From contig NJBF01000088.1 in the NCBI GenBank assembly GCA_003144275.1, positions 1-6,815 of the forward strand: DNA of 6,815 nt. The letters are read 5' to 3'. The translations under genes were made by a program, and so were the position numbers. The stretch's first letter is position 1. Each line of letters opens with the position of its first letter. Below the pieces are notes generated by a model that was given only the letters and a program-made list of their open reading frames with translations, was not told the origin of the DNA and did no database searches. Origin of the DNA: Candidatus Heimdallarchaeota archaeon B3_Heim. Its GTDB lineage: Archaea > Asgardarchaeota > Heimdallarchaeia > Hodarchaeales > Hodarchaeaceae. Below, in pieces: positions 179-6,745 of the stretch.

Positions 179-207
179 ATTATACCATAAAACAGGTTAA
201 ATTTCAA
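179..207 (-). promoter_or_regulatory. Strong sigma70-type promoter with extended -10
   Basis: On the minus strand: -35 TTGAAA (207-202), 17-bp spacer (201-185) ending TGG, and -10 TATAAT (184-179). The -10 is a perfect consensus with the TGn extension. Confidence 0.8.
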
Positions 208-380: not shown

Positions 381-536
381 ATGGCGAGGAATAAAGAAAG
401 TAAAGCGAAACTTCCAAGCATAGGAAAAGACGACGATGACGCGATGGTGGCAATCGAAAAGGAAAACCCCATTGTCAAAAGCGTATTGCATAAAGTTATG
501 CTTAAATTACCAATGTTTCTCAGAGATTGTGTATAA
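381..536 (+). CDS. Small 51-aa hypothetical protein (MARNKESKAKLPSIGKDDDDAMVAIEKENPIVKSVLHKVMLKLPMFLRDCV), first gene of the operon
   Basis: AGGA (368-371) lies 9 nt before ATG 381, and the frame is open to TAA 534-536. The stop is separated by one base from the methyltransferase ATG at 538 (TAA C ATG). Not in the supplied ORF track. Confidence 0.6.
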   Translation: MARNKESKAKLPSIGKDDDDAMVAIEKENPIVKSVLHKVMLKLPMFLRDCV

Positions 537-537
537 C

Positions 538-1893
538 ATGCTCGAACACGATAATAAGTTAGATATGCTTATCAAAGAATACGCGAGTGTTCAAAAACCA
601 CTAAGCGTTGATTTCCGGAAAATGGTTCCCGGCCTAAAAGCGGATCGTTACACGCATTTTATCCATCCTTATCCGGCAAAACTTCTTGTACATATCCCTT
701 ATTTCTTTTTGGCAAATACCCTGCTGTCGAAACCCGGCGATACAGTTTTGGATCCATTTTGCGGGTCCGGTACGGTTTTACTCGAGGGTAAGCTTTTAAA
801 AAGAGAAGTTATTGGAGCAGATATAAACCCTATTGCTCGTTTGATATCAAAAGTCAAAATTTTACCTTTATCTGAAAAAAAATTGAGAAATAAATTCGAT
901 TCAATATTAAAAGAGATACCAAACAAATCAAGCCTTGCACCTCCTGATGTAATCAACCTAGATTATTGGTTTTTTCCCCATGTTACGAAACAACTGTTGT
1001 GTATTTTTGAATCGATAAAAAAGCTGGATGACCCTGAAATTAGAGATTTTTTTCTAGTTTGTTTTTCTTGTTGCGCACGAAAAGTGAGTTTGGCTGATCC
1101 AAGATTAACTGTACCGGTTCGTCTTCGAGAAGGCCAATATCCAAAAGGGCACTGGCTTCGGGAACGAACAGACGCTCATTTGCGTAAACTTCGACGAATT
1201 AATGTAATTAAAGCTTTCGAAAATATCGTTGAACAAAATATTCAGCGTATGAGTCTTTTGGAGAAAGTAAATAAAGATTACTCACAACCTATTATTTGTA
1301 ATGATGCTAAAGCTCTAATGACAGGTGATTCCTTCTTTGAGAAAAAAAAGAACACCCTGATTCCTGAGAATAGTGTACAGCTTGTTATTACATCGCCACC
1401 TTATTCAGGGGCGCAAAAATATATTCGTTCGACAAGCCTAAATATAGGCTGGCTCGGCTTCTGTGCAGCATCTGAACTTAGAACTTATAAAAAGGCAACC
1501 ATTGGCAGAGAAGAATATCATAAGGATGAATACGAGAAATATGTCGATACTGGTATTTTGGCGGCTGACAGAATATTGAAAAAGCTTCGAAAAACAAATC
1601 CCCTCCGTTCTCATATTACTTCAAATTATTTGATTGAAATGCAAGAGGCACTGAGAGAAACGGCACGTGTTCTTAAACCTAAGGGGTATCTCCTTTTAGT
1701 AACAGCAAATAATCAAATATGTGGGCACAAATTCCGAACTCCAATATATCTGAGAACTATTGCTGAGAAACTTGGATTTTCTTTGAAACTATGTCTAATT
1801 GACGATATTAAATCGAGAGGTTTGATGACCAAACGGAACAAAACATCAAGTATAATAACAAGAGAATGGGTTATGCTTTTTGAAAAGGCCTAA
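538..1893 (+). CDS. Amino-type DNA methyltransferase, probably N4-cytosine, alpha motif order (about 451 aa)
   Basis: N-terminal THFIHPYPAKL, SAM-binding motif I VLDPFCGSGT, a long intervening region (putative target recognition domain), then catalytic motif IV VITSPPY and later ARVLKPKGY. Start moved from 436 to 538 because 381-536 is occupied by an RBS-preceded ORF that is coupled to ATG 538. Confidence 0.85.
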   Translation: MLEHDNKLDMLIKEYASVQKPLSVDFRKMVPGLKADRYTHFIHPYPAKLLVHIPYFFLANTLLSKPGDTVLDPFCGSGTVLLEGKLLKREVIGADINPIARLISKVKILPLSEKKLRNKFDSILKEIPNKSSLAPPDVINLDYWFFPHVTKQLLCIFESIKKLDDPEIRDFFLVCFSCCARKVSLADPRLTVPVRLREGQYPKGHWLRERTDAHLRKLRRINVIKAFENIVEQNIQRMSLLEKVNKDYSQPIICNDAKALMTGDSFFEKKKNTLIPENSVQLVITSPPYSGAQKYIRSTSLNIGWLGFCAASELRTYKKATIGREEYHKDEYEKYVDTGILAADRILKKLRKTNPLRSHITSNYLIEMQEALRETARVLKPKGYLLLVTANNQICGHKFRTPIYLRTIAEKLGFSLKLCLIDDIKSRGLMTKRNKTSSIITREWVMLFEKA

Positions 1894-1896
1894 AGG

Positions 1897-2859
1897 ATGA
1901 GAGAATTATATCAACAATTAAACAAAAAGATAAAAACTCTAAATGAACTTCTATGGGGACGTAGGATTACAAATCCTGTGGTTGAGCAATGGTTAAACAA
2001 TTTTACTGGAGAACTGCCTGATAGCAAAGAAAAAATTCATGCATTATATATACTCTCTTGTTTTATGTATTTTGGTGATAGAGAAATAAGGGCATTGTTA
2101 AAAACATTGTTTTATGAACTATTTAAATGCCGGATAATATCAGATATCAGAACACGCAACAATGATACGAGTGATTTAGATTTAATTAATAAAGAATTTA
2201 AAAAAGAATTAAAAGCGACAATATTTTTAGGGGTCGGTAACCCTTCAGAGAGTGGTTGCCATCTATTATATTTTTTTCGCCAAGAAAACTCATTAGATAT
2301 AAATCTTTTTGCCAATGACAGTGATATTTTGAAGATTAGCCGAAATAGCAAAGGTGAACCAATTCCAAAACTAAGACACCCAGAAATTAAGAGATATGTA
2401 TACATTGATGATTTCTGTGGTTCTGGCCAACAGATAATAGAATATTTGTATGAAAGGACAAAGTTAATTAAGGAACTTAAATCTGGTGTGGAATTATGTT
2501 ATTATGTTCTCTTTGGTTCTTTAAGTACATTACAAACGATAAAATCTGCTGGGAACTTTGACAGAGTCGATACCGTTTGTGAATTGGGTGCTTCCTATAA
2601 ATGTTTTCAAAGCGATAGATATTTTAAAGAATACGGTGATAAATTAGATAAACATTTTGCAAAAAACATGTGTCAAACTTATGGCGATAAATTATTTCCT
2701 GCGCATCCCTTAGGCTACAAAGGGGGCGAGTTTCTTATTGGTTTTTATCATAATGTGCCAGATAACACACTACCAATAATATGGTCCGAAGGTAATGGGG
2801 ATGACATCAAGTGGCATCCAATATTTAAAAGATATCCTAAAATAAATTTTGAATGGTAA
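1897..2859 (+). CDS. Phosphoribosyltransferase-like protein, 320 aa (conflict-associated PRTase type)
   Basis: PRPP-loop-like motif YVYIDDFCGSGQQ (about 2395-2433; canonical form hhhhDDhhxTGxT). C-terminal PLGY...F.HNVPDNTLPIIW...W.PIFKR block that I associate with conflict-system PRTase-like proteins. Starts 3 nt after the methyltransferase stop, with AAAAGG upstream. Confidence 0.7.
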   Translation: MRELYQQLNKKIKTLNELLWGRRITNPVVEQWLNNFTGELPDSKEKIHALYILSCFMYFGDREIRALLKTLFYELFKCRIISDIRTRNNDTSDLDLINKEFKKELKATIFLGVGNPSESGCHLLYFFRQENSLDINLFANDSDILKISRNSKGEPIPKLRHPEIKRYVYIDDFCGSGQQIIEYLYERTKLIKELKSGVELCYYVLFGSLSTLQTIKSAGNFDRVDTVCELGASYKCFQSDRYFKEYGDKLDKHFAKNMCQTYGDKLFPAHPLGYKGGEFLIGFYHNVPDNTLPIIWSEGNGDDIKWHPIFKRYPKINFEW

Positions 2860-2871
2860 AAGGTTAACTTT

Positions 2872-4866
2872 ATGGAAAATCCTTTTAATATCACAAAAGC
2901 TTTTAATTTCAACGATGAACAGATAAATGACTATTGGGTTGATCTGGGCGACAATGGTTTCCATAAAATTATATCGCCTAGTTCTTCTATGCCTCTTTTA
3001 ATTCTTGGCGGCAAAGGGAGCGGCAAAACACATATTATGCGATATCATTCTTATTATCTGCAAAAAATGAGATGTACCGGCAATTTACTTAATCATCTTT
3101 CAAATGACGGTTATATTGGGATATACTTTACACTTAGCGGATTAGAGGCATCTAGGTTTTTTAATAAAGATAATATTGAAAGCAATTCAAAAGAAAAATT
3201 ACTTGCATTATTTATTTATTACATGGAGCTTTGGATTGCCCAAAAAGCTATAGAGATAATATCTGATATGGCTAAAAGTAGCCCTGATGCCTTCAAAGAA
3301 AAGGAAATATGCAATTCAATTTGTGATTTATTTGATGAGAATCTGAATAATGCCGAAAGCTTCGATGATTTATTTGGCCAATTGAGCAACTTTAAAAAAC
3401 AAGTGGATATTGCATTAAATAACTACTCTTTTACAGCAAGTCTCAATGTTAAAATTAATATTTCTCGTGGCAAGCTGATTTTTGGTATTCCACAAATACT
3501 TGTAGACAAAGTAAAAGAGTTAAAAAAGTGCCGTGTTGTTTATCTTATGGATGAGCTTGAAAACTTGTATCCAATACACCAAAAGTATATTCAGACACTT
3601 TTACGAGAGCAACAACATCCTGTTACTTTTAGAGTCGGTGCTAGGAAATACGGAGTTAAAACATATAGTACTTTTTGTGGGGACGAAGAAAACAAAGCTG
3701 GGGCTGAATATACGCCGATTTATTTAGACAATCTACTGAGAGGAAATGATGGGTATAAAGAGTTTGCAACAAATCTTATTATTAAGAGACTAATAAAGGC
3801 CGGATTTTTTTTGAAAACTGATGTGACGTTAGGGGATTATTTTGAACAATATTCTGAATCTGTAGAAGAATGGATGTTGAAAGTCATCTCAAATAGCAAA
3901 GAGCTAGAGAGAAAATATTTCAAAAAACTGAGGAACAAATTGGAAAAGGCAAAAAAACTTTTTCAGGAGTTTTCTGATAATGATATCCATACGATAATTA
4001 ACGCTTTGAGGATTGACTCTAATCCCTTATTGGAGAAAGTTAACATTCACTTATTCTATATGGCATGGTCGGCATTAGGAAATAACGGAAGTTTAGTCGA
4101 TGAAGCAACAAAAATATCTAAAAGGTGTAAATCGTATCTCCATAATTCAGACAACGATAAAAATTACAAAGAACTTAAAAAGCATTTTAAGCAGGATTTT
4201 ATCGCTCAATTCTGCAGAGAGTATCGACAGCCTGAGCGTGGCTATTTTGATTTGGAAACATACATCCATATGTCGCAGGGACTGCCTCGTAATTTGCTTA
4301 TGATTTTTCAAAAGGTATATGACTGGGCTATTCAAAACGGTGAGAAGCCTTTTATGGAAGGAAAGATTTCAATTAATTCTCAGTCTAATGGGCTTGCTAA
4401 TGCCGCGGATTGGTTTTGGACAGATGCGAGGATTCATGATGGCAAAGACGCAGATAGAATGGAAAGTATTCAGCGATTAGCTGAATTATTTAGAGAAATC
4501 AGATATTCTGATAAACCGGTGGAATGCTCATTATGCACCTTTAGTTTTAATAAAAATGAATGCCCTAGAGAAGTTTTTGAAATTATTGACGGTTCAGAAA
4601 AAGTGTCATTGCTTATAGAGGTCCCTAAAGGACGTCCAGACAAAAACAGTATGAGAGTTGACTTAAGATATCAACTTAATAGCATGTTAGCTACAACGTG
4701 GAAACTACCGATATATAGGCGAGCAGATATAAGGTTATCAAAATCGGAATTAATGGCTATTTTTAAACCAACAAGTGGCCATGATTATTTAGAATGTAAA
4801 AAGAAACGTCTTTCAAAAATGATGGCTCCTTTTAAAGAAAGCGAGCCAACTTTGTTTTGTGATTAA
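2872..4866 (+). CDS. STAND/ORC-CDC6-like P-loop ATPase, 664 aa
   Basis: Walker A GGKGSGKT (3007-3030), Walker B VYLMDELENL (about 3538-3567), downstream FRVGARKYG strand, and a GxP-type helical motif SQGLPRNLL. N-terminal NPF motif. AAGG RBS lies 8 nt upstream. Confidence 0.8.
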   Translation: MENPFNITKAFNFNDEQINDYWVDLGDNGFHKIISPSSSMPLLILGGKGSGKTHIMRYHSYYLQKMRCTGNLLNHLSNDGYIGIYFTLSGLEASRFFNKDNIESNSKEKLLALFIYYMELWIAQKAIEIISDMAKSSPDAFKEKEICNSICDLFDENLNNAESFDDLFGQLSNFKKQVDIALNNYSFTASLNVKINISRGKLIFGIPQILVDKVKELKKCRVVYLMDELENLYPIHQKYIQTLLREQQHPVTFRVGARKYGVKTYSTFCGDEENKAGAEYTPIYLDNLLRGNDGYKEFATNLIIKRLIKAGFFLKTDVTLGDYFEQYSESVEEWMLKVISNSKELERKYFKKLRNKLEKAKKLFQEFSDNDIHTIINALRIDSNPLLEKVNIHLFYMAWSALGNNGSLVDEATKISKRCKSYLHNSDNDKNYKELKKHFKQDFIAQFCREYRQPERGYFDLETYIHMSQGLPRNLLMIFQKVYDWAIQNGEKPFMEGKISINSQSNGLANAADWFWTDARIHDGKDADRMESIQRLAELFREIRYSDKPVECSLCTFSFNKNECPREVFEIIDGSEKVSLLIEVPKGRPDKNSMRVDLRYQLNSMLATTWKLPIYRRADIRLSKSELMAIFKPTSGHDYLECKKKRLSKMMAPFKESEPTLFCD

Positions 4867-4868
4867 AA

Positions 4869-5810
4869 ATGATAGATTATTCGATTTATTACAGAGAAAA
4901 ACATAGTACCTTGGAATCGTTGTCTGATTTTTACCAGTGGGACTACTATGTTTCTGCATTTAGATCCGATGAGAGAGTAGAAAGGCTTTTCGCTAATATT
5001 AATGCTCATAGAAAAGATTGGCTGATTTTCCCCGAATATAAATATAGCAAAGATGAATATCCGAAAACAAAAACAGAAGAGGATGTAATTGAATTGTCGG
5101 GCAAAACGGAAAGTGAAATTATTAATCCATATGTAAAAAAGTTGATGGCGGATATTAAGGACAAAACTATCTGTATTGACATTACAGGTTTCATCCGTCC
5201 TCATTTAATGTGTTTTCTCAAGTGTTTAAAACGAGAAGGTATCAATAAATTTGACATAATATATGTCGAGCCCGGATGGTATATAAAACGCGAACTTACA
5301 AAATTTTCATATAAGGTTTTAGATGTTAGATTGGTGCATGGTTATGAGGGAATTCAAAAGTTGGATAATAAGGATGATTTACTGATTATTGGCTCAGGCT
5401 ATGATGACCAATTGATTGCAGCCGTTGCAAATAAAAAATCGTCCGTAAGAAATAAAATACAAATTTTTGGTTTGCCAGCCCTTAGTCCTGCATTTTACCA
5501 GGAAAACCGACTTTGTGCTCATAAGGCTGAAGATGTCAAAGATGGAGAGTCTTATTTTGCTCCGGCATATGACCCATTCGCAACAGCAGAAACGATAAGT
5601 AGTATTGTTAAGCAAAAAAAACCAACAAATTTATATCTATGCCCTTTAGCGACAAAACCGCAAGTATTAGGTTTTGCTTTATATTATCTTTTAGAAAGAG
5701 AAAATACTGCCACGAGTATTATTCATCCATTTTATGAATCTTACTCAAAAGAAACTTCTGAGAAGATAGGACGCATATGGAAGTATAGAATTGAATTTCC
5801 TAAAGTGTAA
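4869..5810 (+). CDS. Hypothetical protein, 313 aa, probable tandem alpha/beta (Rossmannoid, possibly CARF-like) domains
   Basis: Starts 2 nt after the ATPase stop. It has two similar beta-alpha-beta units: ICIDITGFIRPHLMCFLKCL...FDIIY and LLIIGSGYD...LYLCPLATKPQVLGFALYY...SIIH. The CDS is secure; the fold call is inference. Confidence 0.75.
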   Translation: MIDYSIYYREKHSTLESLSDFYQWDYYVSAFRSDERVERLFANINAHRKDWLIFPEYKYSKDEYPKTKTEEDVIELSGKTESEIINPYVKKLMADIKDKTICIDITGFIRPHLMCFLKCLKREGINKFDIIYVEPGWYIKRELTKFSYKVLDVRLVHGYEGIQKLDNKDDLLIIGSGYDDQLIAAVANKKSSVRNKIQIFGLPALSPAFYQENRLCAHKAEDVKDGESYFAPAYDPFATAETISSIVKQKKPTNLYLCPLATKPQVLGFALYYLLERENTATSIIHPFYESYSKETSEKIGRIWKYRIEFPKV

Positions 5811-5845: not shown

Positions 5846-6469
5846 TTATATTTTGGACGATATCGCATTAAGGTTATCGATACACAATTGTGACCAGGTT
5901 TCCATTTTATCTCTCACATCTTTGAGGTCATCAATTTTTATGAATCGAAGTTTACAAATCTCCTGTTCTCGACTTTTTACATTTGGCTTTGCTAATCGCC
6001 AAAGATGAATTATCCCAAAGTGTACTCGGCCTACCTCGTTAGAATCATCATTAATAAGACCTACAATCTTGTCGTCGTGTTCAGTTTCAACAATAACTTC
6101 TTCTTCTACCTCTCGCGCAAGAGCATTGAGATATACTTCTTTGATATTTTTACTGGAAACCGAAATTCTATCAGAAGGATTAATATGGCCCCCAATTCCT
6201 ATTGAAGCCTTTTGAGCCAGACGTTTTTCATCGACTCCTATACCTCTGATATAGCAAAGATATGTGTCTTCATAGGCCATAATTACATAGGGAATTAATT
6301 GCTTGTATGCTGGATTCTTCTCGGCCTCCGGTCGAGCCATAAAGCTCACCCCGTTACCCTTCCACAGCTCACCTAAGTAACGATCAACATTAAAGCTGAC
6401 CCCTTGACATAAACCGAGCCCCTCGAGAATATGTCGTTCTATAACAAGAACTTTTTCAATTTTTCCCAT
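5846..6469 (-). CDS. NUDIX (MutT-family) hydrolase / predicted phosphoesterase, about 207 aa
   Basis: YKQLIPYV, EKRL..KASIGIGGHINPSD, a NUDIX box with insertion ending AREVEEEV, and GLINDDSNEVGRVHFG, a pattern I recognise as the COG4112-like NUDIX subgroup. Preferred start is ATG 6469 (GGAAG 8 nt upstream); ATG 6484 is an alternative. Confidence 0.8.
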   Translation of the reverse strand: MGKIEKVLVIERHILEGLGLCQGVSFNVDRYLGELWKGNGVSFMARPEAEKNPAYKQLIPYVIMAYEDTYLCYIRGIGVDEKRLAQKASIGIGGHINPSDRISVSSKNIKEVYLNALAREVEEEVIVETEHDDKIVGLINDDSNEVGRVHFGIIHLWRLAKPNVKSREQEICKLRFIKIDDLKDVRDKMETWSQLCIDNLNAISSKI

Positions 6470-6562
6470 AGGGATTACTTCCATGAATCCATTTTCAGCA
6501 CACCATTCCTTTGCGCCCGACACAAGTTCTCTCACCTTAGCCAGGATCAAATCCAATCCTAA

Positions 6563-6710: not shown

Positions 6711-6745
6711 TTTTCATCCCTCGTCTTTCGTCCCTCGTCTCTCGT
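6711..6745. repeat. Tandem heptamer repeat, 4-5 units, consensus CYYTCGT
   Basis: TTTTCAT CCCTCGT CTTTCGT CCCTCGT CTCTCGT at 6711, 6718, 6725, 6732 and 6739. Confidence 0.8.

Follow-up and report, generated by a model that had tools for sequence, protein, structure and literature searches.

A conserved methyltransferase, phosphoribosyltransferase, ATPase, and CARF-protein cassette in a Heimdallarchaeota contig: a candidate nuclease-free defense system

Contig NJBF01000088.1 of Candidatus Heimdallarchaeota archaeon B3_Heim carries a compact cassette of four genes, which encode a DNA methyltransferase, a phosphoribosyltransferase (PRTase), an AAA+ ATPase, and a protein of tandem CARF type, and which we tentatively interpret as a methylation-gated defense system that works without a nuclease. 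The window analyzed here is the entire 6815-nt contig, and it belongs to a metagenome-assembled genome of 3.95 Mb with 36% GC that is 94% complete. The plus-strand open reading frames (ORFs) of the window are found at 381-536, 538 (or 436)-1893, 1897-2859, 2872-4866, and 4869-5810, with gaps of 1, 3, 12, and 2 nt between them. The four cassette genes span approximately 5.3 kb and are backed by Pfam, PADLOC, and fold matches as well as by the conservation of their order:

538 to 1893, plus strand: DNA amino-methyltransferase (N6/N4), matching PF01555 (E 2.9e-16) and PADLOC MTase_II (E 1.1e-45).
1897 to 2859, plus strand: PRTase-CE phosphoribosyltransferase, matching PF24390 (E 9e-64, 216 bits against a cut-off of 27 bits).
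2872 to 4866, plus strand: ORC-CDC6-like AAA+ ATPase, matching PF24389 (E 1.1e-108 over residues 3-622).
4869 to 5810, plus strand: tandem CARF/SAVED-like protein of the CARF6 family, matching PADLOC PDLC01914 over its full length (E 3.2e-101), with no Pfam match.

Related loci were retrieved from one-genome-per-species contigs using an alignment of 24 ATPase homologues, which gave 80 loci; the alignment was needed, since a search with the single ATPase sequence retrieved nothing. The loci span Planctomycetota, Acidobacteriota, Verrucomicrobiota, Bacteroidota, Alpha-, Beta-, Gamma-, and Deltaproteobacteria, Nitrospirota, Latescibacterota, Spirochaetota, and others. When the window proteins were compared with them by tblastn, 78 of the 80 loci showed the order methyltransferase, PRTase, ATPase, CARF protein on a single strand, with identities of 31–57% and estimated median gaps of 12, 15, and 22 nt. 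One of the two exceptions is interrupted by a contig end. The other, L076:9813-12870, keeps the ATPase and CARF genes, has no methylase, and retains the PRTase only as a C-terminal remnant, as in a decaying cassette. The closest relative is L107, whose ATPase is 53% identical, and a 97%-identical copy of the cassette is present in another sample (L108). In L010:6524-10001 (Desulfovermiculus) the PRTase match ends at residue 202, leaving a distance of about 2.9 kb to the ATPase gene; this PRTase gene has probably been disrupted by an insertion. The initial annotation described a five-gene unit beginning at 381. The coordinates and gaps it gave are correct, and its question of whether the genes co-occur elsewhere is answered by the 78 loci, in which four of the five hold together across many phyla. 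The fifth probably does not belong with them: the 51-aa ORF has no counterpart, and in homologues the methylase frame often closes 2–20 codons before the position that corresponds to 538, favoring a methylase start at or near 538. On sequence comparison, the conserved unit is therefore the four genes from this position onward, and the catalytic motifs of the encoded enzymes are under selection.

The methyltransferase has the layout motif I (DPFCGSG), variable region of about 200 residues, and motif IV (SPPY), and the SPPY motif is retained in 74 of 78 orthologous methylases. The nearest solved sequences are N4-cytosine methyltransferases, with the similarity confined to the motif I region, and N4-cytosine is more likely to be the target than N6-adenine. 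The enzyme is predicted to be the self-marking component of the cassette.

The PRTase also matches the PADLOC models for retron PRTases (PRTase_III-A, E 1.6e-36). Its AlphaFold2 model, with a predicted local distance difference test (pLDDT) score of 94.7, combines a type I PRTase core with a helical N-terminal domain of approximately 105 residues. The phosphoribosyl pyrophosphate (PRPP) loop is kept as IDD-x-CGSG, with D171 and D172 invariant among orthologues, and a further motif of the enzyme, G-x14-P-D-N-x-L-P, is similar to Gx14PNNxP, the hallmark of retron PRTases (PMC12746101). The best Foldseek matches are uracil PRTases, followed by xanthine-guanine and orotate PRTases, with E-values down to 2.5e-5; the query-normalized template modeling (TM) scores are low (0.25–0.30), so that a preference for uracil is a hint only. 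In the retron Eco11 the PRTase brings about PRPP depletion and abortive infection (PMC12746101), and the toxicity of ShosT depends on its DD motif (PMC11961720). A preprint places the defense PRTases in one clade, within which the PRTase of ShosT is the sole one characterized (10.1101/2025.09.30.679545). By analogy with these proteins, the PRTase is predicted to be the output enzyme of the cassette. A second PRTase-CE is encoded in the same genome in a different operon (C57:60746-65126, equivalent to L109:3747-8127, minus strand; PF24390, E 1.1e-30). It is flanked on one side by a 532-aa protein with Type I specificity (Methylase_S, target-recognition domain) and NOV_C domains and on the downstream side by an unknown protein of 229 aa and an Nmad3 (nucleotide modification associated) protein, and to judge from these domains it is likewise paired with a DNA-sequence-recognition module.

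Full-length homologues of the ATPase number more than 500. Its Walker A motif, GGKGSGKT, is present in 77 of the 80 ATPases, and the Walker B residues D227 and E228 (DE) are also conserved. The best family is ORC-CDC6-like, with matches to NPHP3_N/NACHT-type and AAA_22 families lying far under their cut-offs, and the look-alikes in the Atlas are generic KAP, STAND, and AAA P-loop proteins only, with scores of 0.89 or less. The ATPase is predicted to act as the sensor or switch. It was not found in 40 relatives, and within the source phylum PF24389 is rare, being present in 13 of 400 genomes, in every case scoring much lower than the window ATPase. The source genome itself contains a distant ORC-CDC6-like gene on the minus strand at C30:1276-3171 (L110), split by an in-frame TAA into ORFs of 230 and 401 aa, which may be a decayed second copy of this ATPase family.

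The AlphaFold2 model of the CARF protein, built from a 70-sequence alignment, has high confidence values (pLDDT 94.9, predicted TM-score 0.93) and shows two Rossmann-like halves. An exhaustive structural aligner matched its fold to Can1, Csm6, and Card1; a Foldseek match to KaiC in the PDB (TM 0.22) was uninformative. The first half contains D104-x-T106-x3-R110 after a strand and the second half an invariant lysine, K263, and these residues fit the basic-residue signature of CARF pockets, [DN]X[ST]XXX[RK] (PMC4012209). No effector domain is fused to the protein. Co-folding of the ATPase with the CARF protein gave an interaction prediction score from aligned errors (ipSAE) of 0.72 (0.69, 0.72, and 0.77 in the individual runs), compared with 0.00 for the best of three controls. 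Among solved complexes 58 of 80 attain the mark that this passes, and among mismatched pairs 2 of 110 do so; these counts are only rough because custom alignments were used. The runs share at least 88% of contacts, with partner pLDDT values of at least 81. On the ATPase the predicted contacts involve residues 87-101, 121-128, 172-187, 228/231 (beside Walker B), and 514-526, and on the CARF protein residues 148-168 and 180-194. Profile searches of PDB sequences found no relative of the PRTase, the ATPase, or the CARF protein, and no solved structure was found for the cassette; as there is also no similar solved complex, recall of a known structure is an unlikely source of the ipSAE result. The model supports binding between the two proteins, and the CARF protein is predicted to be a nucleotide-ligand sensor docked on the ATPase.

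The remaining features of the window lie on either side of the cassette:

1 to 380, no strand: non-coding leader with a hairpin/terminator-like element at 134-172 and two copies of GCGTATTGCGTATC (about 255-290).
381 to 536, plus strand: 51-aa ORF with no Pfam or NCBIfam family, overlapping in another frame the alternative methylase ATG (436).
5846 to 6556, minus strand: convergent Nudix-like (MutT-family) phosphoesterase, with a weak match to PF00293 (E 0.0016) and the residues E-x7-R-E-V-x-E-E retained.

The Nudix-like ORF was overlooked in the initial annotation. Its true start is probably about 25–30 codons downstream of the TTG. Homologues adjoin the cassette in L007, L010, and L075 and in the 97%-identical copy L108, the gene was not found in the 40 relatives, as with the ATPase, and relatives of the protein in the Atlas are named MutT/Nudix, with structural neighbors that include dCTP deaminase and dCMP deaminase fusions; for these reasons it is counted as an accessory gene. 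An exact-sequence contig look-up with the Nudix-like protein gave no match. The ORFs flanking the cassette in the 78 loci were clustered and their representatives annotated. An enzyme of the dUMP/dUTP type (ThyX, dUTPase, MazG-like, or Nudix-like) adjoins the cassette in 29 of the 78 loci, mostly at less than 200 nt, and on either side and either strand. These neighbors are ThyX (PF02511) in 17 loci, trimeric dUTPase (PF00692) in five, PRA-PH/MazG-like pyrophosphohydrolase (PF01503) in three, dimeric dUTPase (PF08761) in two, and homologues of the Nudix-like protein of the window in three (L007, L010, and L075), giving 30 entries because L006 has both ThyX and dUTPase. The ORF at 5846-6556 is probably an accessory gene within this ThyX/dUTPase/MazG-like niche. 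Among the remaining 66 neighboring genes scanned, neither a nuclease nor any other family recurs.

The 51-aa ORF has no tblastn match in the 80 related loci or elsewhere in its own genome, and probably does not belong to the conserved system. Its PADLOC match to a Type I methylase model (E 3.9e-5 over 34 residues) was judged to be due to chance, as nothing else supports the ORF. The leader at 1-380 is possibly a regulatory region. It contains a near-perfect hairpin at about 150-172, ATGTTAGCC...GGCTAACAT, that overlaps the terminator-like stem. A single promoter had been proposed for the genes, and this could not be substantiated: a promoter and terminator scan of the window did not rise above shuffled sequence, with 19 promoter-like sites against 25.2 expected, and the strongest one toward the 5' end, at 207..179 with TG and 11 of 12 matches, is oriented away from the operon. 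Rfam and tRNA scans of the window were empty. A tandem 14-nt repeat, TTTC(A/G)TCCCTCGTC, is found at 6712-6739 in the non-coding contig end beyond the Nudix-like gene. There are no meaningful repeats around the cassette, and the genome has no further copy of the contig ends; as the window is the complete contig, the insertion borders of the cassette lie outside the view. DNA of this stretch occurs in sediment and marine-sediment metagenomes from at least eight studies, with no RNA datasets listed.

The distribution of the cassette outside the window suggests movement between genomes. It is found on 11 plasmid records (rhizobial megaplasmids and Moraxella), is essentially absent from phage records, and has integrase or resolvase genes within 3 kb in approximately 13 loci; it has most likely been horizontally acquired or is mobile. 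At L107:13098-16065 the cassette is followed by two orphan methylases (DUF3102 with N6_N4_Mtase, and MT-A70) and a DUF2958 protein, surroundings that suggest a mobile element. Genes for a Prokaryotic E2 family E protein and a Multiubiquitin protein, which belong to a ubiquitin-like conflict system, lie about 2 kb downstream in L025, L035, L052, and L072. Some immediate neighbors match defense hidden Markov models (HMMs), namely a pAgo-associated restriction endonuclease, PDC candidates, Dsr1, and Type II restriction endonucleases, in a comparison that is uncontrolled.

More distant versions of the cassette differ in their partners. On a Moraxella osloensis plasmid the order is dUTPase_2, PRTase-CE, ORC-CDC6-like ATPase, CARF6, and an N6_Mtase/Eco57I-like methylase, with an ATPase that has 23% identity to that of the window. 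Because this copy keeps the PRTase-ATPase-CARF triad while the methylase differs in both family and position, the arrangement fits a methylase that serves as an interchangeable self-marking module. Distant PF24389 members in the source phylum also sit in such triads, with other partners. A triad in L101, from the same genus as the source, is accompanied by an N6_N4 methylase. The triad in L102:4927-12258 has SIS+HAD and PfkB genes and that in L100:542-7177 a PfkB+SIS fusion, in both cases with no recognized methylase adjoining, and the triad in L098:865-6241 follows a 275-aa protein with a CAP12/Pycsar-type TIR domain, which would be a second candidate effector of that copy. The sugar kinase of the distant triads weakly resembles ribose-1-phosphate kinase or fructokinase, and the SIS, PfkB, and HAD enzymes may form a substrate-supply pathway for the PRTase. 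A GmhA/HldA/GmhB heptose pathway was considered for these enzymes and found no support, as NCBIfam gave generic sugar-kinase, ribose-1-phosphate-kinase-like, and Cof-type HAD matches only.

In comparison with known systems, the cassette brings together parts of familiar kinds in a combination that is uncharacterized and that is represented in catalogues only through its individual Pfam and PADLOC families. The locus has all the features of a cassette of PF24390, PF24389, CARF6, and methylase genes, with the ATPase directly after the PRTase and the CARF gene directly after the ATPase. A search of the literature found no paper on the four-gene combination, although an earlier computational description may exist. 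With Retron type III-A (e.g. Retron-Eco11, type III-A3) the cassette shares the same conflict PRTase clade, including a PRPP loop with GSG-x-Q at its end and the motif G-x14-P-[ND]-N. In contrast to these retrons, it has no reverse transcriptase (no such family in any ORF) and no msr/msd RNA (no Rfam match), its regulator is the ATPase-CARF pair, and a DNA methylase is attached. BREX type 1 likewise combines self-marking by methylation with a large P-loop ATPase and an enzyme of phosphate chemistry, with no recognizable nuclease, and its BrxC protein is ORC/Cdc6-like. However, PglZ, BrxA, BrxB, and BrxL are missing here, no BREX model is among the PADLOC matches of the six window proteins, and the methylase is a small SPPY amino-methyltransferase rather than PglX, with a CARF protein and a PRTase in place of the other BREX components. 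ShosT resembles the cassette enzyme in having a PRTase with a DD motif; in ShosT the motif is essential and the PRTase is the toxic enzyme, interfering with nucleotide metabolism (PMC11961720). A pyrophosphatase domain forms the N-terminus of ShosT, which is paired with a DprA-like antitoxin, whereas the N-terminal domain of the cassette PRTase is helical rather than a Rossmann-type pyrophosphatase and there is no ShosA-like gene or PADLOC match; the NCBIfam model for PRTase-like anti-phage proteins, DS32_1, gives 19.8 bits with the cassette PRTase against a cut-off of 250.

The CARF and SAVED receptors of type III CRISPR-Cas and CBASS (Can1, Card1/Can2, Csm6, and Cap4/Cap5) differ from the CARF protein of the cassette, which has no fused effector and is predicted to act through a separate ATPase. 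Neither Cas10 (TIGR02578 and TIGR02577) nor a CD-NTase (SMODS, PF18144) was found in the cassette or in the genome, a negative that for Cas10 is soft because the genome is 94% complete, and none of the loci scanned has a CD-NTase beside the cassette. As in Type II restriction-modification, a stand-alone methyltransferase with a variable target-recognition region is tightly linked to genes whose predicted target is unmodified DNA, but no restriction endonuclease or other nuclease domain was detected in the window and none recurs beside the cassette. Compared with the Avs/STAND nucleoside triphosphatases, which are of NACHT or NB-ARC type with sensor repeats and a fused effector, the window ATPase has ORC-CDC6-like as its best family, with NACHT-type matches below cut-off. 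The initial annotation had considered both that the genes contain no nuclease and that they might match a characterized system. The former is upheld by the HMM searches of the cassette and by the neighboring genes; as to the latter, the cassette lacks the defining features of retrons, BREX, type III CRISPR, CBASS, ShosTA, and Type II restriction-modification alike.

Taken together, these features lead us to favor, tentatively and with somewhat more doubt than conviction, a methylation-gated, nuclease-free defense system in which the ATPase and the CARF protein form the sensor and a PRTase that consumes PRPP provides the output; we infer every step of this scheme. In such a system the SPPY methyltransferase would mark the host DNA, and the ATPase with its bound CARF regulatory subunit would be the sensor or switch, triggered either by DNA that is unmarked or invading or by a ligand of nucleotide type in the CARF pocket. 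The switch would then turn on the PRTase-CE, so that PRPP is consumed, the nucleotide supply is disturbed, and replication of the invader is halted, as in the retron and ShosT relatives. The Nudix-like hydrolase, elsewhere replaced by ThyX, dUTPase, or a MazG-like enzyme, could handle pyrimidine deoxynucleotides and thereby protect the host pool or sharpen the effect. This partly agrees with the initial interpretation, in which the self-marking role of the methylase fits and the last protein, proposed to read a nucleotide, has a CARF-type fold; a PRTase that makes the nucleotide messenger appears here only as a rival explanation. Several observations weigh against the defense reading. No DNA-binding domain has been demonstrated in the cassette, and the defense-island association is uncontrolled. 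CARF domains usually read a signal made by a cyclase, and no cyclase is present in the cassette or was found in its own genome (94% complete). Simple PRPP depletion leaves the association with ThyX and dUTPase unexplained. Finally, there are the distant triads with no recognized methylase, some with SIS, PfkB, and HAD enzymes and one with a TIR protein, and methylase-less triads would suit a toxin that burns PRPP no better than a biosynthetic or signaling PRTase.

The main rival, which we consider unlikely, draws on the same observations. Here the PRTase would synthesize a phosphoribosyl-derived messenger, with the ATPase-bound CARF protein as its receptor and the ATPase as the output on unmethylated DNA, for example through a replication block. 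With a CARF sensor present and no cyclase found in the cassette or genome, the CARF ligand could be the product of the PRTase itself, and the predicted docking of the CARF protein by the Walker B region of the ATPase would suit a receptor of this kind. The SIS, PfkB, and HAD enzymes of the distant triads could feed the PRTase, and these sugar-phosphate partners, like the extra TIR effector in L098, suggest that the effector role need not fall to the PRTase. The NTP pyrophosphatases beside the cassette could break down the signal or clean the nucleotide pool. However, we know of no second messenger made by a PRTase, and nothing indicates what would activate the enzyme in this scheme. The characterized relatives in the PRTase clade are, moreover, all PRPP-consuming effectors (PMC12746101, PMC11961720).

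A third possibility, which we regard as improbable, is that the ATPase guides the PRTase to modify bases or nucleotides, for example by DNA phosphoribosylation or by formation of an unusual pyrimidine nucleotide, with methylation blocking or complementing the modification and ThyX, dUTPase, and Nudix enzymes supplying or cleaning the precursors. The association with dUMP/dUTP enzymes is specific and strong (29 of 78 loci), uracil PRTases are the best structural matches of the PRTase core, and the second PRTase-CE of the genome lies between a protein with a target-recognition domain and an Nmad3 protein, all of which would agree with this mechanism. On the other hand, the uracil preference is a hint given the low Foldseek TM-scores, we know of no enzyme of the family that acts on DNA, and the patchy, mobile distribution suits conflict systems generally rather than this one specifically. 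Less probable again is a selfish addiction module that stabilizes itself or its plasmid, with loss of the methylase freeing the PRTase against the host: the location on plasmids and beside integrases, the absence from the close relatives searched, and the relation of the PRTase to a known toxin would agree with it, but four conserved proteins including a ligand sensor exceed the needs of simple addiction, and defense and addiction are compatible rather than exclusive.

Elements of these proposals can also be combined into a CARF pathway that dispenses with a cyclase, an idea we put forward with low confidence. The PRTase would either make a new messenger or phosphoribosylate DNA, and the ATPase-bound CARF protein would read the product and gate the ATPase on unmethylated DNA. 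This would amount to restriction without cutting, in which ThyX, dUTPase, and Nudix enzymes tune the pyrimidine precursor pool.

The ATPase-CARF complex prediction, the Nudix-like accessory gene, and the variants with no recognized methylase are new here. The question of function is directly testable, because the cassette is compact, is spread widely across phyla and plasmids, and has clear mutable motifs in every protein. If the cassette is a defense system, it would be a second widespread type of nuclease-free, methylation-based immunity alongside BREX, and its CARF protein would be the first CARF sensor to work with an AAA+ ATPase and a PRTase rather than with a cyclase of CRISPR or CBASS type. 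The repeated association of the cassette with ThyX, dUTPase, and Nudix enzymes hints at a so far unexplored connection of immunity with thymidylate/dUTP metabolism.

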